Positions 4,459-64,000 of a stretch of 64,000 nt of DNA are shown one piece after another. Under the pieces are notes generated by a model. It was not told where the DNA came from, searched no databases, and saw nothing but the letters and a program-made list of their open reading frames with translations. Both the position numbers and the translations under genes were made by a program. Source of the stretch: a bacterium (lineage in GTDB: Bacteria; UBP6; UBA1177); assembly GCA_017538365.1 (NCBI GenBank), contig JAFYIZ010000028.1, positions 52,962 to 116,961 of the forward strand. Reading direction: 5' to 3'. How positions within the stretch are numbered: position 1 is the first letter of the stretch; each line of letters begins with the position of its first letter.

Positions 4459-7400
4459 TTGGAGGTTTTTATGTCTGGCGTTATCAAAACTTCGGAGGCT
4501 TTGAAAGTCAATCTGGCCGAAACTTTTGTTGCGGGTTACGAATTTTCCGAGCAGGAAAAATTCATTCTGAGCGCAGTTGAAAAGCATCCGCTTCTTGAAA
4601 AGAGGATGAGGACTTTCTTTCTAGAGCTCAACCATCCGTTTCCCAATTTTACCGAGGTAATCGAGGCTTACCGCTGGATCACGCTTGAAAATATGTGGGT
4701 TTTCGCTGATCTTGAAGAGAGCGACAAGCTGCTGAAACTTCTCGGTGACTATTTCATGCAGATTTTCTCGCAGAAGCTCGATATTCCGCAGCGCAACAGG
4801 CTCCGTCAGACTATTTTCAACGTCCTTGAACTCCTCTATAAAATTCTGCAGAGCAGCAAAATTTCGGACGAAGTTTTCAATTCTTATCTTGATATAACCG
4901 AAACGGTTCTTGCCGACGGCAATCCTGGGCTTATGGAAGCGTCGAGTTCGCTCAAAAAATATGTTGCCGAAATCTGCAAGGATGAGCGTTTCAGTGCCAG
5001 AATCTTCAAAATGCTCAAGCGCGTAATGACCATAAATCTGGACTACTGGAAAAATGTCGAATCGTTCTCAGACTGGCTTGAAAAGAGGACTATCGAACAC
5101 GGCGACGAGGCGCTGGAAATCGAAAACGCGATACTTTCGCAGTTTCCGCCGGAGCTTTTCACTGAGTGCGAAGAGGGAATTGAAAAGGCTGAAAAGTGCG
5201 AAGACTTCTTCAAACTGCCCGATTACACGTTTTTTACCGACAGATTCCGCAACACGATCGACTTTATTCCGACACCGATATGCAAAATCTACTACATTTT
5301 CTATCTGCTTGATTTTTCGTCTATGGAAAGTCTGCGCGAATACCTTCTTTTCGACCTCAACAGAACTCTGAAGATAGTTTCGATCGACGATGCGGGCGAG
5401 GCAAAACGCTTTATAACGCGCATGTTCGACTTTTTTAAACCCGTCAGAGAGCTTTTCCAGAGCGCGATTCTCGATTGTGTGAAAACGCTCGGAAAAGAGA
5501 TTGTAAAACGCGGCAGCGCGGCAATCTGCGACCACTTTTTTGATGCAGTCATCCGCTTCGGATTCGTTTATCCCGAACTTAAAGGTGTAAACTCCGACTG
5601 GCAGATGATAGTCGACAAAAACCACGTCAAAAACATAAGGACATGGCTTGAAATAATCGAAGTGAACCCCTCGAAAAGCACGAAACTTCTGTCGGCTCTT
5701 CTTGTAAATCTGAGGATCGGCGGCGTTTTTATCTCCGATACCGACCTTTTCCAGAGTGATGTTACGAAGTTTTTGAACAGCCAGATCGCGCCGGCTTACC
5801 ACATCGCGCGCCAGATCGCAGTTCTCTTCCCGGTTTACTTCAACGAGATCGGTGCTGAGGGCGAGCTTAGAAAAATTTCGACTGCGATTGACGAAATATG
5901 CCACAGAAAGGATCTGCTCACTCACTTTTTGAGAAAGCAGATTCACGCAGAGAGCAACAACACCCACATCCAGCTTGCAAAAGATGTCTTCATTTTCTGG
6001 CTCACCGGCAAAAAGGAACACCTTCAGAACAAGATTCCGAACGAAATTTACGAAACTCTCGAGCCGTCCGGCGAAATGTACGAAGGTCTGCACGAAGTCG
6101 CCCGTTTCGTAACGAGCAGGGTAAGAGGCGACTACGAAGCTCTTTTCACGATGAAACCTGCGGAAGTCGAGAAGATCATCGCCGATTTCGGAGCAGGTCA
6201 TGAAGTCGAGCAGAAAAAAGTCGGATACCTTTTCAACATTTATCTGCTTCTCAAGGAAAAATATTATCTCAATCCAGGCGATATTGCGAAAAAACTTAAG
6301 AAAATCACATATATACATCAGGCGACTATTGACGAGTTCGAGGCTGCAATGACTGCCGAGGACTGGAAAAGCGCAGTCAGAATCGCTTTCAAAATCATGT
6401 CCGCCCTCAAAAAGACGGTTCTTTCGGAAGAGCAGACCGAAGGAGTCGAAAACATCTACTACAAACGCCATATCGCAATCGGAATTCCTTCGATGTACGG
6501 CGAATACAGAGAGCCTAAATTCGAGGCTCTGGGCATGATTTACAGGATGGAGCAGCTTGTTTCGACGATGGTTGAAAAGCTGGTTTCAACTACAAAACTT
6601 CCTTATATTTCAGCCGACAATCTGCGTGAGACCTGCGAAATTCTCGAACTTTTCAGAGAAGGTCTGGAGCTCGGCGGTATCACGAGTGAAAATTTCAATT
6701 CCGACCTCAAGATGCTTGAATACAGCCTGGTTTCCTCAAGTTTCTCGCTGCATCAGTACACCAACATTTTCGAATTCTTTGCTGAGGATTTGAGCAAGAT
6801 CGTTTACGACTACTTCCTCGGAATCCACGATTCGAACCTCAAAATCGTCCTTGAACAGTACATTGAAAAGCACAATCTCACCGTTTCATCGGAAAAGGAC
6901 AAAGAGAAGATTATCCACAAGAAAAGCGAGGAATTCTACCGCGACATCATTTCGTCGTCATTCCTCATGCAGCAGATCGACAGCCTGATAAACTACCTTC
7001 TTTCGATTCTGCACGGCATACCGAAGAGCCTGACGCAGGAAGATATCCACATGATAATGACCTACAAGCGCAAATCGATAATTTCAGAAATCGACAAGAA
7101 GGATGACGAGCTCGACAACCAGGTTTTCTTCGGTGCGAAAGGGTATTTCCTGAAAAGAATCAAAGAGTACGGAATGCCGGTTCCGCACGGATTCATCCTT
7201 ACGACCGAGCTTTTCAGACGCCGCGAAGCGCTCATGAAACACCCCGAAATCGAGAAGGAAATTTATACGACGATATCAGATGAACTTGGCATTCTCGAGG
7301 AAAAAACGGGACTCCAGTACGGCAACCCGAACAATCCGCTCATGCTGTCGGTCAGAAGCGGTTCGGCAATGTCGATGCCCGGCGCGATGAACACTTTCCT

Positions 7401-8553
7401 CAATGTCGGAATGAACGACGAATTTGTCGAACAGCTCGCAAAAAGGGAAAATTACGGCTGGACTTCTTGGGACTGCTACAGACGGCTGATCCAGACCTGG
7501 GGCATGAATTTCGGTATCGACCGCGACTTGTTTGATGCAGTCATCGCCGATTTCAAAAAGGTTTACAAAGTCGAGAAAAAGATCGGTTTCAAGCCTGAAG
7601 TCATGAAACTTGTAGCCAAAGAATACATGAAGATTCTTGAAAGCCAGAAAGTGAAATTCGAGCAGAATCTCCACAAACAGCTTTTCACTTCGATCCACGC
7701 GGTTTTCGATTCGTGGAATTCGCGCCGTGCCCTTGTTTACCGCGACAAACTCCACATTGCAAGCGAGTGGGGAACTGCGGTCATCGTTCAGAAAATGGTG
7801 CTCGGAAACATCAACTACGACTCCGGAACGGGTGTTGTTTTCACGCGGGAACCCAACGGCAGAGGCAGAAAGGTATGTCTTTACGGCGATTTCGTAATGT
7901 GTTCGCAGGGTGAAGACATCGTCGGCGGTCTTGTTCACCCGTATCCGGTTTCGGAAAAGCAGAGACTTGAGATGAAAAACGCGCCTGATATCAGTATGGA
8001 AAAAGATTTTCCTGAAATATATTCGGCACTTAACGATATTTCAGTCGAACTTATCAACAAGCGCGGTTTCGGCCATCAGGAGATTGAATTCACCTTTGAA
8101 ACCTCGAAAAAACAGGATCTTCACATTCTCCAGATCCGTTCGTACCACCAGAACGACCTCATGCAGGAAGAGCTTGTTCCCGACAATCTGCCGCTGATAG
8201 GCGAGGGAACCGGCATCGGAAACAACGTCCTCACCGGAAGAGTCGTCTTCTCGATGGAAGACATCGAAAAATGCAAAAAACTCTATCCCGGCGAAAAGAT
8301 CATCGTTATGCGTCCCGACACCGTCAGTGACGATATCGACATGATTTTCGAAGCCGACGGACTGGTCACATCCCGCGGCGGAGCAACATCCCACGCGGCT
8401 GTTACGGCGGTCCGTCTCGGCAAAATCGGTGTCGTCAACTGTAAATCCCTCACCTTGGATGAAGTCAACAAAACCTTCACATTCGGCGGCGAAACTAAAA
8501 ACGTTCTCTGCACACTCACTATCGATGGCAGACGCGGATTCATTTACGGGTAG
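4459..8553 (+). CDS. 1364-aa multidomain protein: unknown N-terminal ~820 aa, then a PPDK/PEPS-like ATP-grasp nucleotide-binding domain and a PEP-utilizing phosphohistidine swivel domain; no PEP/pyruvate TIM-barrel domain
   Basis: The C-terminal third contains GAKGYFLKRIKEYGMPVPHGFILTTELF and LMLSVRSGSAMSMPGAMNTFLNVGMNDEFVEQLAKR, which matches the PPDK N-domain LSVRSGAxxSMPGMMDTxLNLGLND. It also has LVTSRGGATSHAAVTAVRLGKIGVV, the GGxTSHAAI phosphohistidine motif. The protein ends about 25 aa later. RBS ggagg precedes the ATG. Confidence 0.6.
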   Translation: MEVFMSGVIKTSEALKVNLAETFVAGYEFSEQEKFILSAVEKHPLLEKRMRTFFLELNHPFPNFTEVIEAYRWITLENMWVFADLEESDKLLKLLGDYFMQIFSQKLDIPQRNRLRQTIFNVLELLYKILQSSKISDEVFNSYLDITETVLADGNPGLMEASSSLKKYVAEICKDERFSARIFKMLKRVMTINLDYWKNVESFSDWLEKRTIEHGDEALEIENAILSQFPPELFTECEEGIEKAEKCEDFFKLPDYTFFTDRFRNTIDFIPTPICKIYYIFYLLDFSSMESLREYLLFDLNRTLKIVSIDDAGEAKRFITRMFDFFKPVRELFQSAILDCVKTLGKEIVKRGSAAICDHFFDAVIRFGFVYPELKGVNSDWQMIVDKNHVKNIRTWLEIIEVNPSKSTKLLSALLVNLRIGGVFISDTDLFQSDVTKFLNSQIAPAYHIARQIAVLFPVYFNEIGAEGELRKISTAIDEICHRKDLLTHFLRKQIHAESNNTHIQLAKDVFIFWLTGKKEHLQNKIPNEIYETLEPSGEMYEGLHEVARFVTSRVRGDYEALFTMKPAEVEKIIADFGAGHEVEQKKVGYLFNIYLLLKEKYYLNPGDIAKKLKKITYIHQATIDEFEAAMTAEDWKSAVRIAFKIMSALKKTVLSEEQTEGVENIYYKRHIAIGIPSMYGEYREPKFEALGMIYRMEQLVSTMVEKLVSTTKLPYISADNLRETCEILELFREGLELGGITSENFNSDLKMLEYSLVSSSFSLHQYTNIFEFFAEDLSKIVYDYFLGIHDSNLKIVLEQYIEKHNLTVSSEKDKEKIIHKKSEEFYRDIISSSFLMQQIDSLINYLLSILHGIPKSLTQEDIHMIMTYKRKSIISEIDKKDDELDNQVFFGAKGYFLKRIKEYGMPVPHGFILTTELFRRREALMKHPEIEKEIYTTISDELGILEEKTGLQYGNPNNPLMLSVRSGSAMSMPGAMNTFLNVGMNDEFVEQLAKRENYGWTSWDCYRRLIQTWGMNFGIDRDLFDAVIADFKKVYKVEKKIGFKPEVMKLVAKEYMKILESQKVKFEQNLHKQLFTSIHAVFDSWNSRRALVYRDKLHIASEWGTAVIVQKMVLGNINYDSGTGVVFTREPNGRGRKVCLYGDFVMCSQGEDIVGGLVHPYPVSEKQRLEMKNAPDISMEKDFPEIYSALNDISVELINKRGFGHQEIEFTFETSKKQDLHILQIRSYHQNDLMQEELVPDNLPLIGEGTGIGNNVLTGRVVFSMEDIEKCKKLYPGEKIIVMRPDTVSDDIDMIFEADGLVTSRGGATSHAAVTAVRLGKIGVVNCKSLTLDEVNKTFTFGGETKNVLCTLTIDGRRGFIYG

Positions 8554-9843: not shown

Positions 9844-9918
9844 TGGCGACCCCTAGCGGATTCGAACCGCTGTTAGCGGCGTGAGAGGCCGCCGTCCTAA
9901 CCGCTAGACGAAGGGGTC
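9844..9918 (-). tRNA. tRNA-Glu (anticodon CUC)
   Basis: Reverse complement: GACCCCUUCGUCUAGCGGUUAGGACGGCGGCCUCUCACGCCGCUAACAGCGGUUCGAAUCCGCUAGGGGUCGCCA. It folds as a cloverleaf with acceptor GACCCCU/AGGGGUC, anticodon stem GCGGC/GCCGC and loop CUCUCAC. CCA is encoded. Close to canonical tRNA-Glu. Confidence 0.85.
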
Positions 9919-9932
9919 ATTGCATGAATAAG

Positions 9933-10006
9933 TGGATCCCGAACAAGGATTCGAACCTTGATTGACGGAGCCAGAATCCGTAGTCCTGCCATTGGACGAT
10001 CCGGGA
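9933..10006 (-). tRNA. tRNA-Gln (anticodon CUG)
   Basis: Reverse complement: UCCCGGAUCGUCCAAUGGCAGGACUACGGAUUCUGGCUCCGUCAAUCAAGGUUCGAAUCCUUGUUCGGGAUCCA. Acceptor UCCCGGA/UUCGGGA, anticodon stem ACGGA/UCCGU, loop UUCUGGC, T-arm CAAGG-UUCGAAU-CCUUG. CCA is encoded. Confidence 0.8.
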
Positions 10007-11441: not shown

Positions 11442-13391
11442 TCACTTTAAATATAAGTCAAGAATATAATAACCTTTGATATTCATTGCCGAAATATTGG
11501 AACTTTCGCTCATGAACGGCGTGATTTTTATCGAATATGTTTCTCCGGCTTTCACTTTGCGGGTAATGAAACTGTATTTGTTGAAGTGAAGAGTGGATAT
11601 CATGTCGTCGGAAGTGCCGATTTCAACGCCGTCATGCAGCAGAGTCATCACGGTATCGATATCGAAACTTGTCGATTCGCGGTCAGGACTTGTCGAAATA
11701 TAGACGGTTCCGTCGCGTTCCGCTGTAAATTCGAAAGTGTTCTCGTAAAAATCACTGTCGGTATCGAAATATCCGAAATAAGCTTTGTCAGTCGAAATTT
11801 TTACCGGGTTTTTGTCGGTTCCGTGACTCCATTTTTCAGGTTTCGAGATAATTTCTTCAATCGAAAGAGTCAGTTTCTCACCTGAATTCTGCTCGCATTC
11901 GTTGATAAAAAGTCCGAAAACGAGAGTTTCAGTCAACTCGTATTTTCTTGAAAAAAAGCGGACTGTTTCAGCGGGATCGGGCATTGCAAACGGCAGCAGG
12001 TCACGGTCAAAAATGTAGAGTCCTGCAAGATTTTCAGGCACAGAAAGAGTGATTTCTGCAAGATTTTTTTCTTTGTCGGCAATCCACTTGAAAAATTTCC
12101 AGCCGCAGTCGGGAAGTTCAATCTCAAGCTTGCCGGCGGATGAATCGAAAGTTTCGATTTTTGTCTCTCTGCTGATTTCAAGAGAGTAGGGAACGTCGCT
12201 TCCCAAAAGGTCGAGGTAAATATCTCCGTTGAAAGGCGCGAGCATGTTGATGTTGTGTGTTTCGATGCCGCTCAGCATGTTTGCACGCAGTGCGATAAGG
12301 CCGCTTCCGGTTATGTTGTACGAAGATCCCCAGATTTCGGCAATAAAAGGATTCGGATTTTCGGGAGTGATTTTTATGGAAAGAATATCACCCTTTTCGA
12401 CTTTGAATCTGAACCAGTCTTCGTCGTCGCTCTCAACGCCCAAAATATTTTTCTTTTCAGTGTCCAAATATCCGGAAATATTGGCCGAATCGGTGATGTT
12501 TGCATAGTCGAAGGTGTCGTTCGGTTCAAGTTCCTTTGATTCCGGCTGCTGCGTGAAGGAGACACTGAAAACCTCGTCCTCAGTTTCGTCGAGATCGAGG
12601 AGCATTCTGCCGGTCACGAGAAGATGCCGCAGATTTCCTTCAAGTCTGGAATAGATGAGCGGGTCGATTTTATTGCTGTAGTAGTCTTCATCGTCGTTTC
12701 CTGCGACGATTTCGCGGCTTCCGCAGTTCATGACAAAAGAAAATTTGTTGCTTTTCATATTTTTCGAGTCGACATTCATCTGGTAGAGCGCGCTTTTTTC
12801 AAAAACCGGTTCGAGAATGTCAATATGCTTGCCTGATTGCGAGAAAACTCTTTCAACTGTTGAATTTAATTTGATTTTTTCATAGTTGTCAGCGTCGCAT
12901 ATATGACTTGTTATCACTCTGAAATAATATTTGAATCCACCGACTTTCTTCTCTTCACCTGTGTTTCTTTTGTCGCCTATTTCAAAATAGTTCCAGCCGT
13001 CGGCAGTCGTTACGAAAGTTGCCCTGCGTTTTCCCGGAACTTTGAAAACCGCGAAAGTGTAGTTGCCAAGATTGTCGTTGTGAGCGATGTACGGCTCGAA
13101 ATTTTCTTCTCTGCTTTCAAACTCAAAAGTGATAAGAGTTCCGGAGGGCAGCCAAATCTTGAAAATGTCTGTATCGGCTGAATTTCCCTTGGGTTTTGCA
13201 ATTTCTGCGGCGTAAATGTTTCCTTCAGAAATTTCGAAAGCCGGAAAATCGTTAGGTTCGACTTCGTATATATATTCGGCAGAATCAACGTATTTCGTAT
13301 GTTCGCAGCCGGCAACAAGCGGCAGAAACAATAAAAAATAGAAATATTTCAAAAATTTTAGAGTCAAACAGCCTGCTCCGCAACAAATCAA
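11442..13391 (-). CDS. Secreted/lipoprotein hypothetical protein (649 aa) with two pre-peptidase C-terminal (PPC)-like domains
   Basis: Signal with lipobox FLPLVAGC. Two segments begin EPND..., each followed by a D.DWF.F-type signature: EVEPNDFPAFEISEG... and LEPNDTFDYANI...DEDWFRFKVEKGDILSIKI. Confidence 0.5.
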   Translation of the reverse strand: MICCGAGCLTLKFLKYFYFLLFLPLVAGCEHTKYVDSAEYIYEVEPNDFPAFEISEGNIYAAEIAKPKGNSADTDIFKIWLPSGTLITFEFESREENFEPYIAHNDNLGNYTFAVFKVPGKRRATFVTTADGWNYFEIGDKRNTGEEKKVGGFKYYFRVITSHICDADNYEKIKLNSTVERVFSQSGKHIDILEPVFEKSALYQMNVDSKNMKSNKFSFVMNCGSREIVAGNDDEDYYSNKIDPLIYSRLEGNLRHLLVTGRMLLDLDETEDEVFSVSFTQQPESKELEPNDTFDYANITDSANISGYLDTEKKNILGVESDDEDWFRFKVEKGDILSIKITPENPNPFIAEIWGSSYNITGSGLIALRANMLSGIETHNINMLAPFNGDIYLDLLGSDVPYSLEISRETKIETFDSSAGKLEIELPDCGWKFFKWIADKEKNLAEITLSVPENLAGLYIFDRDLLPFAMPDPAETVRFFSRKYELTETLVFGLFINECEQNSGEKLTLSIEEIISKPEKWSHGTDKNPVKISTDKAYFGYFDTDSDFYENTFEFTAERDGTVYISTSPDRESTSFDIDTVMTLLHDGVEIGTSDDMISTLHFNKYSFITRKVKAGETYSIKITPFMSESSNISAMNIKGYYILDLYLK

Positions 13392-47386: not shown

Positions 47387-47483
47387 TGGCAGCGCGGCGG
47401 CTATAAAAAAATTTGATAAAATTTATTCTTGTTGTTATAAAGCGGCGTTTTTTTTGTTTTTACTTAATTTTTTGGAGTCAGAG

Positions 47484-49094
47484 ATGAAGAAATTTTTCGT
47501 ACTTACGGCTTGTCTTGTTGCCATGATTGCATGCGGAAACGGTCACGACGTGATGATGCAGAAAATGGAAGAGGCTGCTGAAAGAAACAAAGCCTATCAC
47601 GAGGCTGAAGAGGCAAAAAAGAAAGAAAAACCGAAATTCGTAGATGATGAAATCAAAGAAGAGCTCCCTGCGATCGTAGACGCGGCTGCAAAAGGCAACC
47701 TTGCGGCTGTAAAAGCTGAAATCAGCAAGGGAACTCTTGTCGATACTAAGGACGGACGCAGCAGAACGGCTCTTTACATGGCTGCTTCTGAAGGTAAAAA
47801 AGATGTTGCAGACTACCTCATCGAAGAAGGTGCAAACGTCAACACGAAGCGCGATGACGGCGACACTCCGCTTATGGCTGCTGCAAGAAAAGGCGACAAG
47901 GAGATCGTTGAGGCACTTATAAATGCGAAAGCCGATATTGCTCAGGCAGACAATTTCGGCAGAACTCCGCTTATGATGGCTGCTTCCAGCGGTTCGAAAG
48001 AGCTTGTTGACTATATGCTTGCAAACGGTGCAGACCTCAATGCAACTGACAAATACGAGCTTTCGGCTCTTATTTTCGCGATGAAGGCTCACAAGATGGA
48101 TCTTGCGAAATATCTGCTCAGCAAAGGCGCGAAGGTATGGAAAGCGAAACCTCTCGTAATCAAGGAAAAACCCCTTGTCCTCAAGATCGAAGGCAAAGTT
48201 CAGCCGGGAATGGAAGAAGTTATCGAAAATCTTGACAAGAAAGATGTTCATCTCCGCCAGAAAACCGAGCTTTTCTACGCAGTTGAAACGGGCGATCTCG
48301 ACCTTGTCAAACTTCTTGTACAGAAAGGATCTCCGGTTCTCGTAGACGATGTCGAGCAGAGCAGGGAAACGATAATTTATGAATTCGGCGGAGGCAAGGA
48401 AGAAGAACGCGATATGCTTTTCCAGAGAAAGATCACGAGAACTTCTTACGACCGCGACCAGAAAAACCTTCTTCACTACGCTGCTGAAGGCGGATATGTC
48501 GATATCATGAAATTCCTCATTTCCAAAGGCGCAAGACTTGAAGAGACCGACGGCGAAAACGTCAGAGGTCCGCTTTTCTACGTCGTAGCTCAGGAAGTCG
48601 ACCCGAAAGATCCGGGCAAAGAGGCGAGACTCGTTGCAACGGCTGATTACATCATCGAAGAAGGCAAAAAGACCTGGACGAAGAGAGTCAGACTTACCAA
48701 AAAAGAACTCGACAAGATGAGAGAGAAAGAAAAAGCTAAAAACTGGTGGGAAAAGAACCCGTTCGATACCGAATGGAAAGATGTCACCGCTCCGAAAGTC
48801 GACATTGAAGAATACGATTACGAAGGCTGGCATGTTCTTGCTCTCGCTGCAAAATACGGTCACACTGACATCGTTAAACTTCTCATAAACAAAGGCGCTA
48901 ACATCAACCACAAAGAGAGAAAAATGGGTAACACCGCGCTTATTTACTCGAGAGTCGGCAAATTCAAAGAGATGGAAAAATTCCTTCTTGAACACTGTGC
49001 GAAAGAGGGAATCAACTTCGATCACGAAGAGCTTGCAAAACAGGGCTGGAAATGCGTTGATGGAAAAGAAGTTTTCGAAAAGCCTGCCGAATAA
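47484..49094 (+). CDS. Ankyrin-repeat lipoprotein
   Basis: MKKFFVLTACLVAMIACGNG lipobox. Multiple ANK repeats (DGRSRTALYMAASEGKKDVADYLIEEGANVNTKRDDGDTPLMAAARKGDKEIVEALINAKADI...). Confidence 0.65.
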   Translation: MKKFFVLTACLVAMIACGNGHDVMMQKMEEAAERNKAYHEAEEAKKKEKPKFVDDEIKEELPAIVDAAAKGNLAAVKAEISKGTLVDTKDGRSRTALYMAASEGKKDVADYLIEEGANVNTKRDDGDTPLMAAARKGDKEIVEALINAKADIAQADNFGRTPLMMAASSGSKELVDYMLANGADLNATDKYELSALIFAMKAHKMDLAKYLLSKGAKVWKAKPLVIKEKPLVLKIEGKVQPGMEEVIENLDKKDVHLRQKTELFYAVETGDLDLVKLLVQKGSPVLVDDVEQSRETIIYEFGGGKEEERDMLFQRKITRTSYDRDQKNLLHYAAEGGYVDIMKFLISKGARLEETDGENVRGPLFYVVAQEVDPKDPGKEARLVATADYIIEEGKKTWTKRVRLTKKELDKMREKEKAKNWWEKNPFDTEWKDVTAPKVDIEEYDYEGWHVLALAAKYGHTDIVKLLINKGANINHKERKMGNTALIYSRVGKFKEMEKFLLEHCAKEGINFDHEELAKQGWKCVDGKEVFEKPAE

Positions 49095-52407: not shown

Positions 52408-52746
52408 ATGGATCAAAAACTTCTTCCCGAAATAAAACTTTTTAAAGAGCGGTTTAGCGAATTTCTAGAAAGTGAAGCTGCACTCAACGGAAAACTGCTT
52501 GTCAGAGAGCTTATTTACCGCTTTGCCATGGTGCAGTTCAGGGATACGCACGGTTTTGAGGCTGGAAAAGTTGAATACATCGCCAAAGTTTTTGACGAAG
52601 CGAAGGCTGAATTCGGGAAGATTTTTGAGGAGTTCGCTGTTTTCTGTATTGAAAACGGTTTCGACGAGACTTTTATAAACTCAGAGATGAAGAAATGGCT
52701 GACCGAAATTTCGGAAAAAATGGAACTCGAAAAGGCGGAAGGCTGA
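52408..52746 (+). CDS. Hypothetical cytoplasmic protein (112 aa)
   Basis: ORF. Start chosen at the first ATG after the upstream stop. No motif. Confidence 0.35.
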   Translation: MDQKLLPEIKLFKERFSEFLESEAALNGKLLVRELIYRFAMVQFRDTHGFEAGKVEYIAKVFDEAKAEFGKIFEEFAVFCIENGFDETFINSEMKKWLTEISEKMELEKAEG

Positions 52747-53774
52747 TTCTTTTCATTCTGCTTTCGGTGCTTTTTCACGGGCTTGTTTTTTTAATAAAAA
52801 TCGACCTTTCAACCGATAAAAGCGAAGAGGAGAGTCTCGTTTCGATAAAGTATCTTGATGATTCTGCGGCAAAACTTCCGGCAACTCCGGTTCTTCCGCC
52901 GAAACCTGAAAAGAAAAAGGAAAATTCGAAACCGAAAGGGCAGGTCGTCGATATTGCAAAGCCGAAAATCGAGAAAAAACCTTCAGAAAGCCGTTTTCTT
53001 TCGGAATTTGACAGTTCTGTCGAGAAAGAAACTGTTTCCTCTCAGCACGATGACAACATAAATGTCCGCGGCGAAAGTCTGAAAAGGCAGCTTGCCAAAA
53101 AGGCGGAAAACATGAAAGTCGAATCTGACGAAAGCATGATGATGCCGATGCAGTCGGCTGATGCGCAGAAACCTGAGCAGGCAAAGGCCGAAAAAATCAA
53201 AAAAGGGGAACTTAAAGGTTTCGAAGGCGATGACGGCAACTATGCGGCTGGAAAAGATAAGGAAATTGCCGGAAAGCTTGATGCTAAAGACGACAAGGAT
53301 GAAGAAGGGCGCGTGAATGTCGGCGGAAGGTGGATTCCGAAAAAACTTCTTCCTTATCTCAATGGTTCCGACGCTGTGCTGATGAGTCCGTCGAATGATT
53401 TTCTGGAAGATGTCAGAAAGGGGAACGAGACTTATCTCAACACTCAGAAATTTGCTTATGCGGCCTACTTCAACAAGATGAAACAGGCGATCTCACGAAA
53501 CTGGAGTCCGGGGACGGCGATAATCGTGAACGATCCTACCGGCAGAATGTATGGCAGAAAGGACAGATTCACGAAGCTCCAGGTTTTTATTTCGGCGCAG
53601 GGAAAGCTCGTCAAAGCAAAGGTTATCACGAGCTGCGGAGTCGATTTTCTTGACCGCGAGGCGATAAACGCATTCAAAATGGCGGCTCCTTTCGCTCCAC
53701 CGCCCGAAATCCTTCTCAACGAAGACAAACAGCTTGAAATACGTTTCGGATTTATGGTGACAACACATGAATAA
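52695..53774 (+). CDS. TonB-family protein (transmembrane anchor, Pro/Lys-rich linker, TonB C-terminal domain)
   Basis: Transmembrane RLILFILLSVLFHGLVFLI. PVLPPKPEKKKENSKPK. C-terminal domain ...KLQVFISAQGKLVKAKVITSCGVDFLDREAINAFKMAAPFAPPP. Start uncertain: 52-nt overlap with the upstream ORF. Confidence 0.5.
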   Translation: MADRNFGKNGTRKGGRLILFILLSVLFHGLVFLIKIDLSTDKSEEESLVSIKYLDDSAAKLPATPVLPPKPEKKKENSKPKGQVVDIAKPKIEKKPSESRFLSEFDSSVEKETVSSQHDDNINVRGESLKRQLAKKAENMKVESDESMMMPMQSADAQKPEQAKAEKIKKGELKGFEGDDGNYAAGKDKEIAGKLDAKDDKDEEGRVNVGGRWIPKKLLPYLNGSDAVLMSPSNDFLEDVRKGNETYLNTQKFAYAAYFNKMKQAISRNWSPGTAIIVNDPTGRMYGRKDRFTKLQVFISAQGKLVKAKVITSCGVDFLDREAINAFKMAAPFAPPPEILLNEDKQLEIRFGFMVTTHE

Positions 53775-54607: not shown

Positions 54608-55708
54608 ATGAAGAAAATCTGGTTGGTTTTAACGATTGTTTGTGTTTTCGTGCTTTCAAGCTGCGGTGGAGACAGCAAAACCCCGACAAAAGTTGAGGAA
54701 GAAACTGAAAACATGCCGGAGGAAGCTGAGGATGTGCAACCAGCTCCCAGTCCAAATGATGGAGCTCCTGAAGAACCTACTAACAGCAATGCGGAGTCTG
54801 ACTCCGGAATTCCCGGCTACACTGTTGAATTCAACATTATTGATATTGACATGATGGGACAGGGACAGTCAATGGCGATTGGCTACTTCATGAAGACTGC
54901 ACGTGAAGATCTGGAAGAAGATGAAGTTGAGGATGTTACGCTCGACACCTGTGTTATGGGTGAATCTTCACCGCGCGTTCCGAAATGTTTAAGCAAAGCC
55001 GACTGTGCTCCTGAGCAGGAATGTGTGCCGGAGACAGACAGCAACGGTAATGTGATCGAAAACAGTGAGCACTGCGAAACTCCGAACAGAGCTTCTCTTG
55101 ATGTAGGACCGGTTGAGATCGCAGGTTTTAACGGAGGTCCTTATCCGTTTGCTTACGAGCCTGGAGATCAGGTTTACAAGATGAATGGAACCGGTGACGG
55201 CAGTATTGACCGTTCTCTTATTGCGTATGGTGTCGACTATACGATTCGCGGCGAAAATATGATTCCAGACGATCTTAATTCGCTTTCAGCAACATTCAGA
55301 ATGCCTCCAATGCTGCAGCTTATCGAACCTGCTGCGACTGAAGGGGGAACATTCGGTGCTGCAATCGCGATCGATAACTCAAAACCGCTCAAATTTGTCT
55401 GGGAAGGCAACGGCGGACAGGGTTATATCGATATCACGATCACGGCGGCTCAGTCTCTTGCCAATACGGTTTCTGTAACATGCAAAGTTATTGACGACGG
55501 CGAATTTACAGTTCCGGAAGAGTTCGCTTCACAGCTCGTTTTCGGCGGCGGCGGTGACGGAATGATGGATCAGATGCTTGCAATGATGAATATGATAATT
55601 TTCGACCGTCATACTGAATCGCCGATTACCGGTGACGGCATTTCTGTCGGCAGAGTTTCGTCGGAACAGCTTATCATGGTTAATGTTCTTCCGACAGGAT
55701 CCAATTAA
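54608..55708 (+). CDS. Hypothetical lipoprotein
   Basis: MKKIWLVLTIVCVFVLSSCGGDSK. Acidic N-terminal region. No recognisable domain. Confidence 0.45.
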   Translation: MKKIWLVLTIVCVFVLSSCGGDSKTPTKVEEETENMPEEAEDVQPAPSPNDGAPEEPTNSNAESDSGIPGYTVEFNIIDIDMMGQGQSMAIGYFMKTAREDLEEDEVEDVTLDTCVMGESSPRVPKCLSKADCAPEQECVPETDSNGNVIENSEHCETPNRASLDVGPVEIAGFNGGPYPFAYEPGDQVYKMNGTGDGSIDRSLIAYGVDYTIRGENMIPDDLNSLSATFRMPPMLQLIEPAATEGGTFGAAIAIDNSKPLKFVWEGNGGQGYIDITITAAQSLANTVSVTCKVIDDGEFTVPEEFASQLVFGGGGDGMMDQMLAMMNMIIFDRHTESPITGDGISVGRVSSEQLIMVNVLPTGSN

Positions 55709-58324: not shown

Positions 58325-59191
58325 TTACCAGCCGAAAAAGAATGAAAGCATTGAATTTATGATTTCAGTCGGAAGCAGGAACATGACGAGGCCCCCGAAA
58401 GCTAAGAACGGACCGAAATAAATTGCGTGTTCGACATCTTTTTCCTCTTTTGAATTGAGGTCTTCAGCTGAAATGTTGCCGGCGATGCGTTTTTTGCCGA
58501 ATATTAGTTTTGCCGCGAGATAAAAAATTATTCCGCCGAGCGATGCGATAAGCAGGATGAACGGTATCATGACCGGCCCAGTGAACGCGCCGATTGCAGC
58601 TAAAATCCAGACATCGCCCAGACCCATGCCGATTTTTTTAGTAACGAGGTAGAAAATGAGGATTGCGAGCAGAAGAAATCCTGCGCCGACGCCTATTCCG
58701 ATGAGGGATTGCTGCCAGCTGAAAGTCGGTTCGAAGAAGCTCCAAAGAATACCCATGAAGATCGGCGGGATTATCACTTTCGAATAAACGAACTGCGTTC
58801 TGTAGTCGATTGCCGCGGTGACGACAAGTGCCGAAATGAAGTAAAGCGGGAGTATCAGACGCGGATAAAAACCGAATTTAAGGAATGCAAAAAGGTATAA
58901 AAAGGCGTTCAGAAGCTCGATTACAGGATAGATAAGTGAGATTTTTTCACCGCAGCCCGAGCATTTTCCGCGCAGGAAAATCCAGCTGAAGACGGGAATA
59001 TTTTCATACCATGTTATTTTATGGTTGCATTTCGTGCAGGAACTCGGCGGAAAAACGATGCTTTTGCCGAGCGGAATGCGGTAGATGCAGACATTGAGAA
59101 AACTGCCGAAAAGAAGCCCGTAAATAAAGACGAAAACGGCTGAAAAAGTCGCGAAACGCGGTGAATTGAAAAGTACGAAAAACTCTTCCAT
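58325..59191 (-). CDS. Prepilin peptidase (A24 family, PilD-like)
   Basis: ATG at 59191 after RBS ggag. MEEFFVLF..., LLFGSFLNVCIYRIPLG, zinc tetracysteine CTKCNHKI...CSGCGEKI. I rejected the 150-aa N-terminal extension in the track ORF. Confidence 0.7.
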   Translation of the reverse strand: MEEFFVLFNSPRFATFSAVFVFIYGLLFGSFLNVCIYRIPLGKSIVFPPSSCTKCNHKITWYENIPVFSWIFLRGKCSGCGEKISLIYPVIELLNAFLYLFAFLKFGFYPRLILPLYFISALVVTAAIDYRTQFVYSKVIIPPIFMGILWSFFEPTFSWQQSLIGIGVGAGFLLLAILIFYLVTKKIGMGLGDVWILAAIGAFTGPVMIPFILLIASLGGIIFYLAAKLIFGKKRIAGNISAEDLNSKEEKDVEHAIYFGPFLAFGGLVMFLLPTEIINSMLSFFFGW

Positions 59192-59355
59192 TTTGCACTC
59201 CAAAATCAACAAAAAACCAGTAATTTTTGACATAACAGAGGAAAAGTCAATCAAATTCGGCACTGCCGCTCGTGATCCCGGCAAGACTTCGGCGGCGCTC
59301 TTGTTTTTCCAATGCTTTTCTTTAAAATCTCGGCAACTTGTTTCGGGAGGACGAA

Positions 59356-59940
59356 ATGAAAATAGTTTTTGCATCCGGAAACCGCGGGAAACTGCGCGAG
59401 GCCGGAGAGATATTTTCGGGTTTTGAGATCGTGCCGATAAGCGCTTTTCCCACTTGGAATGCACCTGTTGAAAACGGTTCAACTTTTCTGCAGAATGCGG
59501 TGATAAAGGCTGAAGCTGCTGCTGCGGCGGCTGAAGGAGAGATTGTTCTTGCTGACGATTCAGGCCTGGTTGTTCCTGCTTTAAACGGTGCCCCAGGCAT
59601 TTTTTCGGCCCGTTTTTCTGCGGAAGGGACCGATGCGGCAAACAGAAAAAAACTTCTTGCCGAACTTTCCGGAATTAATGACAGAAGTGCATACTTCCTC
59701 TGCACGGCGGTTCTTATTTTTCCGGACAAAACTGTGATTGCGGCAGAGGGAAGATGTTACGGTAAAATAATTGAAACCGAGCGTGGAAACAACGGTTTCG
59801 GCTACGACCCGGTTTTTGTGCCCGACGGCTATGAAAAGACTTTGGCGGAACTTTCGGAAGAAGAGAAAAATTCTATCAGCCACCGCGGAAAAGCCTTTCG
59901 AAAATTGATCGGCGCCGCTGATCTTCACGAGATCTCGTGA
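59356..59940 (+). CDS. rdgB: dITP/XTP pyrophosphatase (RdgB/Ham1)
   Basis: MKIVFASGNRGKLREAGEIF, FGYDPVFVPDGYEKTLAEL, ISHRGKAF. Confidence 0.85.
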   Translation: MKIVFASGNRGKLREAGEIFSGFEIVPISAFPTWNAPVENGSTFLQNAVIKAEAAAAAAEGEIVLADDSGLVVPALNGAPGIFSARFSAEGTDAANRKKLLAELSGINDRSAYFLCTAVLIFPDKTVIAAEGRCYGKIIETERGNNGFGYDPVFVPDGYEKTLAELSEEEKNSISHRGKAFRKLIGAADLHEIS

Positions 59941-62140: not shown

Positions 62141-62416
62141 ATGAATAAGTCGAATTTAATTGCTGTTTTTTCTGAAAAAGCAAACCTTTCAAAGAGAAAT
62201 GCGGAACAGTTCGTAAACATTATGATTGATTCAATGATCAAAGCTCTCAAAAACGGCGAGCGCGTTGAAATCAGAGGTTTCGGCAGTTTCGTAGTTCGCA
62301 CTTACGGTGCTTATGAAGGCAGAAATCCCAAGACCGGCGCAACGATAAACGTCGATCAGAAGAAACTTCCTTTCTTCAAGGCTGGAAAAGATCTTCTTTC
62401 CCGCATCAATGACTGA
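62141..62416 (+). CDS. HU/IHF-family DNA-binding protein
   Basis: 91 aa. RVEIRGFGSFVVRTYGAYEGRNPKTGATINVDQKKLPFFKAGKDL (the HU/IHF arm). Confidence 0.8.
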   Translation: MNKSNLIAVFSEKANLSKRNAEQFVNIMIDSMIKALKNGERVEIRGFGSFVVRTYGAYEGRNPKTGATINVDQKKLPFFKAGKDLLSRIND

Positions 62417-62432: not shown

Positions 62433-62454
62433 GCCGCTTCGTGCGGCTTTTTTT
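62433..62454 (+). terminator. Rho-independent terminator after the HU/IHF gene
   Basis: gccgc-ttcgt-gcggc hairpin (62433-62447), followed by a T7 run. Confidence 0.6.
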
Positions 62455-62470
62455 ATTTTTCGGATAACTC

Positions 62471-64000
62471 ATGTCGTTTAAAGCAGAACTCTATTTTACG
62501 GCTGCTGCCATAAGGCTCGCGCGATATTTCATTTCGCAGAACGACGGAAATGAGATCGTCATGGTCGGCAAGGTGGATGCAGACGGAAAAATCTGCGATC
62601 TACGCCGCGCCGCGATGGGGGACACCGGCTCTGTGCCTGCGGTTATTGCTACTGCCGCGCCTGGGGAAGTGCTTATTCACAACCATCCGAGCGGAAACAT
62701 AAATCCGAGCGCCGCAGATATTGAAGTTGCAGCACGCGCAGCCGAAAAAAGTGTCGGTTCATACATTGTTGACAACGATGTGATAAATGTTTTTCCGGTT
62801 GTCGAAAGGATCGAACCCGAAAACACCGAAATTGAGCCTATTGATCTTGAAGAAGTTGCTGAGATTTTCAGCAGAAACGGAAGACTTGCGCAGTCTGACA
62901 GTACGTTTGAGTTCAGACATCCTCAGACCGAAATGGCTTTGAGTGTTGCCGAAGCGGTAAATTCCTCGTCTGTTCTGGTTTCAGAAGCGGGAACGGGAAC
63001 TGGCAAAAGTTTCGCATACCTTGTTCCTGCGCTGCAATACGTCTCGAAAAACAAAGGTAAGAGAGTCGTCATAAGCACTTCAACGATCGCTCTGCAGGAA
63101 CAGCTTTTCAACAAGGATATTCCGGCGCTTCTCAAAAAACTTGATATTGACGATGTCGGAACGGTCGTTCTGAAAGGGAGAAGCAACTATCTCTGCAAAA
63201 GGAGATATGCTGATTTCAGAATGGGTAGTATCCAGACGAAAATCGACGATGCAGCTTCACAAAAAAGTGTCGAAACTGTCGAAGAGATCGACCAGTGGCT
63301 CAACTATACCGATGACGGATCTCGCTCGAACATGAATTCATCGCTTGCTCTCGATATTTGGAACGAGATTTGCGCTGACGAGCTGGCATGTGAAAAAAGC
63401 AAATGCCGTTTTTTCAGTTCATGTTTCTTTTTCAAGGCTAGAAGACGTGCGAATTTTGCTTCTCTCATCCTTGTCAACCACCATCTTTTAATGGCTGATG
63501 TCTCGATGAAATCAGCAGAAGACGAAGGTGAAGGAATCCTTCCGAAGTTTGATATTTTAGTTATTGACGAGGCTCACAACATTTTTAAAAGTGCGGTCAG
63601 TTTTCTTGGTGAATCGGTTTCGTCAAATTCAGTCAGAAAGCTGCTCGGAAAACTTTACAATACCAATTCGGGGCAGGGGCTTCTGACAAAACTTCTCAGT
63701 AACAACGCGAATTCAACGCTGCTCAAACCTGTTGAAAAGGCGGTGAATATACTTTCCGGCGGTTTTCAGGCGAAACTCGCACACTCGTTTATTCCCGAAC
63801 TGATTTCGATTCTGGGCAAAAACAGCGACGAAAACCTTTACGAACTCGACGACCCTGAAAAGCGGAAAGAAATGACCGATATTCTGGGAAAGATTGTTAC
63901 AGTCGTAACTGATGTGACCGATCTGATTGCGCCGGTCGTAAAACTTTTGAAGGAAAAAGATGAGGCGCACACCGAGCTCAGAACCGTCATGGATGATATG
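62471..64000 (+). CDS. DinG/Rad3-family ATP-dependent helicase with an N-terminal RadC-like JAB/MPN domain; the 3' end runs off the window
   Basis: I translated this manually: no stops to the window end. N-terminus VLIHNHPSGNINPSAADIEVAARAAEKS (RadC JAB HNHPSG motif). SEAGTGTGKSFAYLVPAL (Walker A). FeS Cys cluster CEKSKCRFFSSCFFF. VIDEAHNI (DEAH box). Confidence 0.7.
   Translation, partial: MSFKAELYFTAAAIRLARYFISQNDGNEIVMVGKVDADGKICDLRRAAMGDTGSVPAVIATAAPGEVLIHNHPSGNINPSAADIEVAARAAEKSVGSYIVDNDVINVFPVVERIEPENTEIEPIDLEEVAEIFSRNGRLAQSDSTFEFRHPQTEMALSVAEAVNSSSVLVSEAGTGTGKSFAYLVPALQYVSKNKGKRVVISTSTIALQEQLFNKDIPALLKKLDIDDVGTVVLKGRSNYLCKRRYADFRMGSIQTKIDDAASQKSVETVEEIDQWLNYTDDGSRSNMNSSLALDIWNEICADELACEKSKCRFFSSCFFFKARRRANFASLILVNHHLLMADVSMKSAEDEGEGILPKFDILVIDEAHNIFKSAVSFLGESVSSNSVRKLLGKLYNTNSGQGLLTKLLSNNANSTLLKPVEKAVNILSGGFQAKLAHSFIPELISILGKNSDENLYELDDPEKRKEMTDILGKIVTVVTDVTDLIAPVVKLLKEKDEAHTELRTVMDDM

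Follow-up and report, generated by a model that had tools for sequence, protein, structure and literature searches.

The window analyzed here is a 64-kb stretch of DNA from a rumen bacterium (contig JAFYIZ010000028.1, positions 52,962–116,961), and coordinates below are those of the window. Its last part holds the 5′ portion of a gene for a RadC-like DinG, a protein in which a JAB domain of the RadC type precedes an iron-sulfur (FeS) helicase. On the forward strand, which carries every feature of this gene, the frame from 62471 to 64000 can be translated without a stop for 510 codons and is still open at the window edge; these are codons 1–510 of about 836. An earlier note on this DNA had described a RadC-like JAB/MPN domain at the N-terminus of a DinG helicase and a gene cut by the edge. 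Both descriptions held: the two parts lie in one frame, Pfam searches found RadC, DEAD, and DEAD_2 within it, and codons 511–836 were seen only in homologous loci. The full gene is visible at four loci syntenic with the window (L001–L004). An in-frame TAA (62465–62467) sits one codon before the ATG at 62471, which fixes the N-terminus and leaves no room for an additional upstream domain such as a helix-hairpin-helix (HhH). The portion hidden by the window edge is represented by P0003, an 836-aa protein encoded at these four loci that is 97% identical to the window product across all 510 residues, without gaps, and that contains Helicase_C_2 (135 bits). Many near-identical 836-aa proteins are present in a large protein database. 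The closest genome in the collection searched was the yak-rumen metagenome-assembled genome (MAG) RGIG10122, at 93% identity.

The N-terminal 113 residues (62471–62809) are a minimal RadC-clade JAB/MPN+ domain. E28 (within GNE; codon at 62552–62554) corresponds to the general-base glutamate of JAMM motifs. Residues 70–83 (HNHPSGNINPSAAD, 62678–62719) follow the pattern HxH-x7-S-xx-D and provide the zinc ligands H70, H72, and D83 together with S80. The zinc motif that defines JAMM proteins (E28...H70-x-H72-x7-S80-xx-D83) is complete. Two alignments of full-length homologues (22 and 80 sequences) and one of N-terminal domains (48 sequences), with identities of about 32–97%, showed residues E28, H70, N71, H72, P73, P79, S80, and D83 to be invariant. 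Pfam RadC (PF04002) matched residues 58–92 only, with 29.5 bits against a gathering score of 22.1, so the JAB fold put forward in the note has profile support. An AlphaFold2 model of window residues 1–121 had a mean predicted local distance difference test score (pLDDT) of 93.1. When a profile of the domain was compared with known structures, 2qlc was matched at 1.2e-7 and AfJAMM weakly. The best fold matches with a known activity were JAMM1, Rpn11, CSN5, BRCC36, Cap3, and BilC, all of which are zinc isopeptidases or peptidases. Unlike canonical RadC/YicR (UPF0758; 2qlc), the RadC-DinG protein is without the N-terminal HhH, and P0003 scores far below the cut-offs of both canonical RadC models (20 bits for TIGR00608, cut-off 133.85; 23.9 bits for NF000642, cut-off 180).

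The JAB domain is joined to motor domain 1 by a linker of 32 residues (114–145, 62810–62905). In the full-length model the linker forms two short helices, at 126–132 and 138–142, and its G137 is nearly invariant. NCBIfam, fold, and sequence matches identify the remaining window residues (146–510, 62906–64000) as motor domain 1, the FeS domain, and the start of the Arch domain of a DinG/XPD-type helicase. The Walker A motif (motif I, EAGTGTGKS, residues 172–180) is encoded at 62984–63010; its residues E172, A173, T175, G176, G178, and K179 are invariant. The FeS-cluster domain (63194–63424) contains C242, C307, C312, and C318. The last two are invariant, and the first two are kept in 90% or more of the sequences; a further cysteine, C301, shows no conservation. 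The DEAH box (motif II, residues 366–369, 63566–63577) is invariant at all four positions (D366, E367, A368, and H369). The JAB signature, Walker A, four-cysteine cluster, and DEAH box all lie where the note had placed them.

In the window fragment Pfam DEAD scored 41.8 bits and DEAD_2 28.9 bits, both of which exceed their gathering thresholds, and residues 124–507 were matched by the NCBIfam YoaA, DinG, and DinG-related models. The full-length model, with a pLDDT of 88.7, a predicted template modeling score of 0.85, and helices through residue 833, was compared with solved structures by Foldseek. It matched the E. coli DinG-single-stranded DNA (ssDNA) complex (6fwr, 2.5e-37), S. aureus DinG (9ii8, 4.5e-30), XPD (4a15, E value of 3.2e-23), and CasDinG (7xf0, E value of 1.2e-22). 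A sequence search of the PDB agreed with the fold search, with 6fwr at 5.6e-46, and this entry is the best solved structure by both routes. Walker A, DEAH box, four FeS cysteines located between motifs Ia and II, and an XPD-like fold are the features of the DinG/XPD (Rad3) FeS helicases of superfamily 2, and all are present.

The best NCBIfam model for P0003 was YoaA (NF053712), at 509.7 bits, below its equivalog cut-off of 680; scores for Bacillus-type DinG (NF005981, 414.1 bits, cut-off 789), E. coli DinG (NF008729, 359.7 bits, cut-off 598), TIGR01407 (324.5 bits, cut-off 547.7), and Csf4 (TIGR03117, 110.7 bits, cut-off 400) also fell below threshold. Judged by these scores, the helicase is YoaA-like and is not YoaA. 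It shares the helicase motifs, the FeS cysteines, the Arch domain, and (in the full-length homologue) Helicase_C_2 with E. coli YoaA and DinG, and differs from these stand-alone enzymes in its extra N-terminal JAB domain.

The same architecture has been described before. Fusions of RadC-type JAB domains to DinG/Rad3 helicases were reported from five bacterial groups (Iyer et al., 2011; PMC3239186), and a 2025 review (PMC11981726, section 3.8) named and modeled "RadC-like DinG" as one of ten DinG subgroups. The type protein of the review, Desulfuromonas soudanensis A0A0M4DKS9, was compared with P0003 by BLASTP using its first 399 aa, taken from Table S1 of the review. The two are 36% identical (E value of 7e-85, residues 6–410) over an alignment of 409 residues that spans both the JAB domain and the helicase. 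The window protein also has the other characters of the subgroup, namely a JAB domain N-terminal to DinG in one polypeptide and a conserved, putatively metal-binding E/H/H/D center, and, as read from P0003, motor domain 2, Arch, and the C-terminal helix. It differs from published RadC-like DinG by lineage only. The architecture is already known, and near-identical proteins are already listed in NCBI as "DEAD/DEAH box helicase"; P0003 is labeled only "DEAD/DEAH box helicase [bacterium]".

The fusion is also widespread. The JAMM motif lies upstream of Walker A in 119 of the 120 best homologues, the exception (P0046) being truncated at its N-terminus, and the fused open reading frames (ORFs) are about 815–880 aa long. 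A scan of GTDB with one genome per species returned 80 loci, 56 of them with the N-terminal domain and an intact JAMM motif. Many of the fusions were in Gemmatimonadota; others came from Geobacter/Desulfuromonadales, Spirochaetota/Treponema, Fusobacteriota, Halanaerobium (Halanaerobiales), Sumerlaeota, Planctomycetota, Terriglobia, and unclassified bacteria. Gemmatimonadota, Fusobacteriota, Halanaerobiales, Sumerlaeota, and Terriglobia lie beyond the five KEGG orders of the review. The note had called the JAB fusion unusual; this was not supported by the survey of its phylogenetic distribution. Described in 2011, named in 2025, and present in many phyla, the fusion makes the window protein an ordinary member of a known family. 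The gene is almost certainly a chromosomal housekeeping copy of RadC-like DinG.

We considered whether radC and dinG had been joined by an assembly or sequencing error. The same fused ORF recurs in no fewer than 119 homologues from independent assemblies and in the genomes of 56 GTDB species, and the linker is conserved and modeled with good confidence. Within the window no stop or frameshift separates the two parts. Two genes merged by a frameshift were rejected on the same grounds (a continuous frame, and fusion in more than 100 independent assemblies), and an artefact of any kind is vanishingly improbable. Short hits to the JAB profile had raised the possibility of stand-alone members. A search of 1.84 billion representative proteins with this profile gave 215 clusters (defined at 50% identity) with E ≤ 1e-30 and 571 with E ≤ 1e-10. 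Among these, candidates of 119–273 aa appear to be contig-end fragments: five of the eight inspected continue into the helicase (Walker A or, in P0128, a frameshifted remnant), and three break off within the linker or shortly past it, as fragments at contig ends would. The JAB domain of RadC-DinG therefore seems to be a small subfamily of its own, found only as a DinG fusion.

The JAB domain is under strong purifying selection. Between the window and its close relatives the ratio of nonsynonymous to synonymous substitution rates (dN/dS) of the domain was 0.013–0.07, as low as that of the helicase core. Given such selection, JAB is most likely an active hydrolase that the helicase carries on a tether. 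We weighed this against the possibility that it is mainly a binding or regulatory module, with catalysis secondary or absent. Such a module might dock, for example, to the C-terminal tail of SSB, taking the place of the HolC recruitment of YoaA, or might auto-inhibit the motor. The top-scoring NCBIfam model is that of YoaA, and, according to the review (PMC11981726), RadC-like DinG occurs in organisms from which HolC, with which YoaA partners, is absent. JAMM proteins would also be suited to such a role in a general way, as JAB domains typically grip the C-terminal tails of their substrates.

A Cetobacterium sp. MAG provides another point in favor of a binding role. Of the 57 GTDB loci with an N-terminal extension of the JAB type, 56 have an intact motif; its orthologue (L061:3745–4180) is the exception. 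The JAB site reads IFNHSSKHLHPTDGE, with H70 replaced by F, S80 by T, and D83 by E, so that three of the five catalytic residues are lost; the rest of the domain aligns normally and the fold is kept. By its substitutions this is an inactivated copy, of the kind Iyer et al. (2011; PMC3239186) mention for some fusobacteria, in which zinc ligands have been lost. Retention of the domain despite the lost residues implies that JAB also has a structural or binding role besides catalysis. Against a role confined to binding, all 80 aligned sequences, drawn from many phyla, keep the five catalytic residues, and a pure binding module would not need them; the motif is likewise intact at 56 of 57 loci, and inactive MPN− domains elsewhere shed these residues fast. 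We therefore regard a mainly binding or regulatory JAB domain as improbable.

If the domain is a hydrolase, the question becomes what it cuts. It may be a zinc-dependent nuclease that trims or cuts the exposed strand, and the protein would then be a helicase-nuclease like the DnaQ-fused DinG enzymes. Iyer et al. (2011; PMC3239186) made this proposal on the argument that JAB had displaced, without homology, the 3′–5′ exonuclease of related helicases, and they also listed DNA-binding modules to which RadC is fused, namely HhH, primase, and ArdC. The exonuclease-fused helicases in our GTDB scan reproduce the displacement argument. Loci from Cloacimonadota (L067), Anaerolineae (L068), and Armatimonadota (L084) encode an N-terminal RNase_T exonuclease on helicases that are 32–33% identical to P0003, a protein in which no RNase_T domain was found. 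Their cores are as near to P0003 as those of RadC-DinG proteins from other phyla, and the exonuclease takes the N-terminal place that JAB has in P0003, so that positional analogy favors a nuclease.

The comparison extends to other DinG subgroups. ExoDinG of Bacillus and Staphylococcus (8zef, 9ii8) shares with RadC-like DinG an N-terminal accessory hydrolase on an equally related helicase core. The accessory domain of ExoDinG has an RNase H-like DEDD exonuclease fold, to which JAB is unrelated, and the exonuclease N-terminal region, linker included, is about 250 residues long, compared with 113 for the JAB domain. A third subgroup, EndoDinG, carries an N-terminal endonuclease (PMC11981726). Literature searches turned up no JAB-fold nuclease and no JAB/deaminase-like fold with demonstrated phosphodiesterase activity. 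The chemistry of the site also speaks against DNA cleavage, as a single zinc held by His/His/Asp with a Glu is the classic amide-hydrolysis arrangement of JAMM enzymes. Taking both sides together, we consider a nuclease possible but on the unlikely side.

The alternative that we develop as a working model is a helicase-guided metallopeptidase. By family membership, the C-terminal 690 residues would act as an XPD/DinG-type FeS helicase that binds ssDNA across its two motor domains; ATP would drive 5′→3′ movement on ssDNA, and the FeS and Arch domains would form the strand-separating pore. JAB, as a putative active zinc hydrolase on a tether of about 30 residues at the N-terminus of motor domain 1, would act in cis on anything that the helicase encounters as it translocates. 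It would cut a peptide or isopeptide bond. Proteins stuck on or cross-linked to the tracked strand could thus be removed at stalled forks or repair intermediates, after which the same polypeptide would unwind the DNA. We lean toward a peptidase because the fold neighbors whose activity is known cleave peptide or isopeptide bonds and because the zinc site is of the amide-hydrolysis type. The RadC-ArdC fusion reported by Iyer et al. (2011; PMC3239186), in which ArdC is an ssDNA-binding module with a zincin peptidase domain, fits the theme of a protein target on ssDNA.

Several observations weigh against this scheme. The Cetobacterium locus keeps the domain with H70, S80, and D83 lost, and a DnaQ-type 3′–5′ exonuclease holds the N-terminal place in the equally related helicases of L067, L068, and L084. 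A survey of the gene neighborhood found no known ubiquitin-like conjugation partner beside the gene, and according to the review no experiments exist on RadC-like DinG (PMC11981726). Our literature searches on RadC-DinG or on RadC catalysis likewise returned just the 2011 and 2025 in silico papers, with no later or experimental work; "RADC" in papers on DNA-protein crosslinks is unrelated to bacterial RadC. We hold the mechanism as a whole only tentatively, at somewhat less than an even chance, and cleavage of a peptide or isopeptide bond, taken as a claim of its own, is likewise plausible without being quite an even bet. Set directly against each other, a first JAB-fold nuclease and a DNA-guided metallopeptidase appear about equally likely, and a nuclease or deubiquitinase-like activity coupled to the helicase is a fair hypothesis.

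A eukaryotic parallel gives the metallopeptidase scheme a more concrete form. FANCJ, a 5′→3′ FeS helicase of the XPD/DinG family, works with the zinc metalloprotease SPRTN on DNA-protein crosslinks in eukaryotes. The likeness, an FeS helicase paired with a zinc metalloprotease against protein obstacles, would be one of function only and serves as a working model: the pair is made up of two separate proteins, and its protease, SPRTN, belongs to the zincins rather than to the JAB enzymes. In the version modeled on this pair, the DinG motor would track ssDNA 5′→3′ and, on reaching a protein covalently cross-linked or firmly bound there, hand it to the tethered zinc site for cleavage, which is conceivable but, in our estimate, unlikely. 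Were it true, RadC-like DinG would be a one-polypeptide bacterial counterpart of FANCJ-SPRTN, and JAB domains of the RadC clade would receive their first biochemical function.

What RadC-type JAB domains do biochemically has reportedly been a question since 2008, under the heading "RadC, a misleading name?". The fusion ties such a domain to an enzyme with a known substrate, ssDNA tracked 5′→3′, and is therefore the most tractable place to ask if protein or DNA is the target that RadC domains cleave. Beyond what has been published, the present analysis adds a JAB subfamily that is apparently only DinG-fused, selection on it as strong as on the helicase core, the setting of a chromosomal housekeeping gene without a conserved partner, and at least one lineage with an inactivated copy.

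The surroundings of the gene are those of an ordinary chromosomal housekeeping neighborhood. Upstream lie genes for HU, a BamB-like β-propeller, a tetratricopeptide repeat (TPR) protein, and rdgB (Ham1); downstream, as seen at L001–L004, are proS, a chalcone-isomerase-like gene, a sigma-70 factor, a MiaB-like radical-SAM gene, rpsA, and recX. Within its lineage the gene occurs in one copy, at a syntenic position. The HU-like gene directly upstream (62141–62416; Bac_DNA_binding, 100 bits) is kept only within the window lineage (L001, L005–L007). When ORFs were called at 47 fusion loci and three neighbors on each side were clustered, no neighbor was conserved across phyla; synteny was confined to lineages, namely Gemmatimonadota and the window lineage (TPR, β-propeller, HU). 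The protein therefore appears to work without a dedicated operon partner.

This context bears on a possible part in anti-phage or mobile-element defense, for example as a type IV CRISPR CasDinG-like protein or in a helicase-effector system. The PADLOC model PDLC01439 ("typeIV_DinG", associated with CAS-IV-A) matched the helicase part with 407 bits, and JAB peptidases serve in the cyclic-oligonucleotide-based antiphage signaling system (CBASS; Cap3) and in Bil defense (BilC), both of which are among the fold matches. Against this, no cas or defense genes lie within 10 kb at the four syntenic loci, the 47 loci share no neighbor across phyla, and the gene is single-copy and syntenic. The Csf4 score is far below its cut-off (110.7 against 400 bits), and the JAB domain alone matched no PADLOC model. 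The note had suggested a role in DNA repair or defense; with housekeeping neighbors and no partner conserved across phyla, a role in defense is effectively excluded. As a separate observation, the match of PDLC01439 to a housekeeping helicase indicates that this model appears to recognize generic DinG, and false CasDinG calls are possible.

The region between the HU-like gene and the helicase was examined for expression signals. A terminator-like hairpin (62433–62447) followed by a T-run closes the HU-like gene, and only about 10 nt separate the T-run from the start codon of the helicase. A search of the forward strand between 61900 and 62700 gave no sigma-70-like promoter, and no obvious Shine-Dalgarno sequence precedes 62471. 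Helicase expression is therefore possibly low, and read-through of the terminator may be its source.

Other features of the window are recorded briefly. A tandem of tRNA-Glu(CTC) and tRNA-Gln(CTG) on the reverse strand (9844–10006) constitutes the only RNA genes found by Rfam and ARAGORN in the 64 kb, where the same searches found no rRNA. An ORF of 1364 aa (4459–8553, forward strand) has Pfam matches only in its C-terminal quarter (PPDK_N, residues 933–1171; PEP-utilizers mobile domain, residues 1280–1360), and its first ~900 residues are without a family match. The forward strand also encodes a 546-aa protein rich in ankyrin repeats (47454–49094; Ank_2, 175 bits). Free-living bacteria seldom have ankyrin-rich proteins, which are often tied to host interaction. 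No Pfam match, or a marginal one, was obtained for the ORFs at 11442–13391 (reverse strand, 649 aa), 52695–53774 (forward strand, 359 aa), and 54608–55708 (forward strand, 366 aa). The second of these has a weak TonB_C domain at its end, and the third, which is acidic and cysteine-rich, begins with a lipoprotein-like signal (…LSSCGG). The ORF for a prepilin peptidase (A24) on the reverse strand (58325–59641) is 438 aa long from a TTG start. Syntenic gene calls are shorter (275–288 aa), and the first ~150 residues of the listed ORF, which are of low complexity and Q/P-rich, are therefore probably untranslated.

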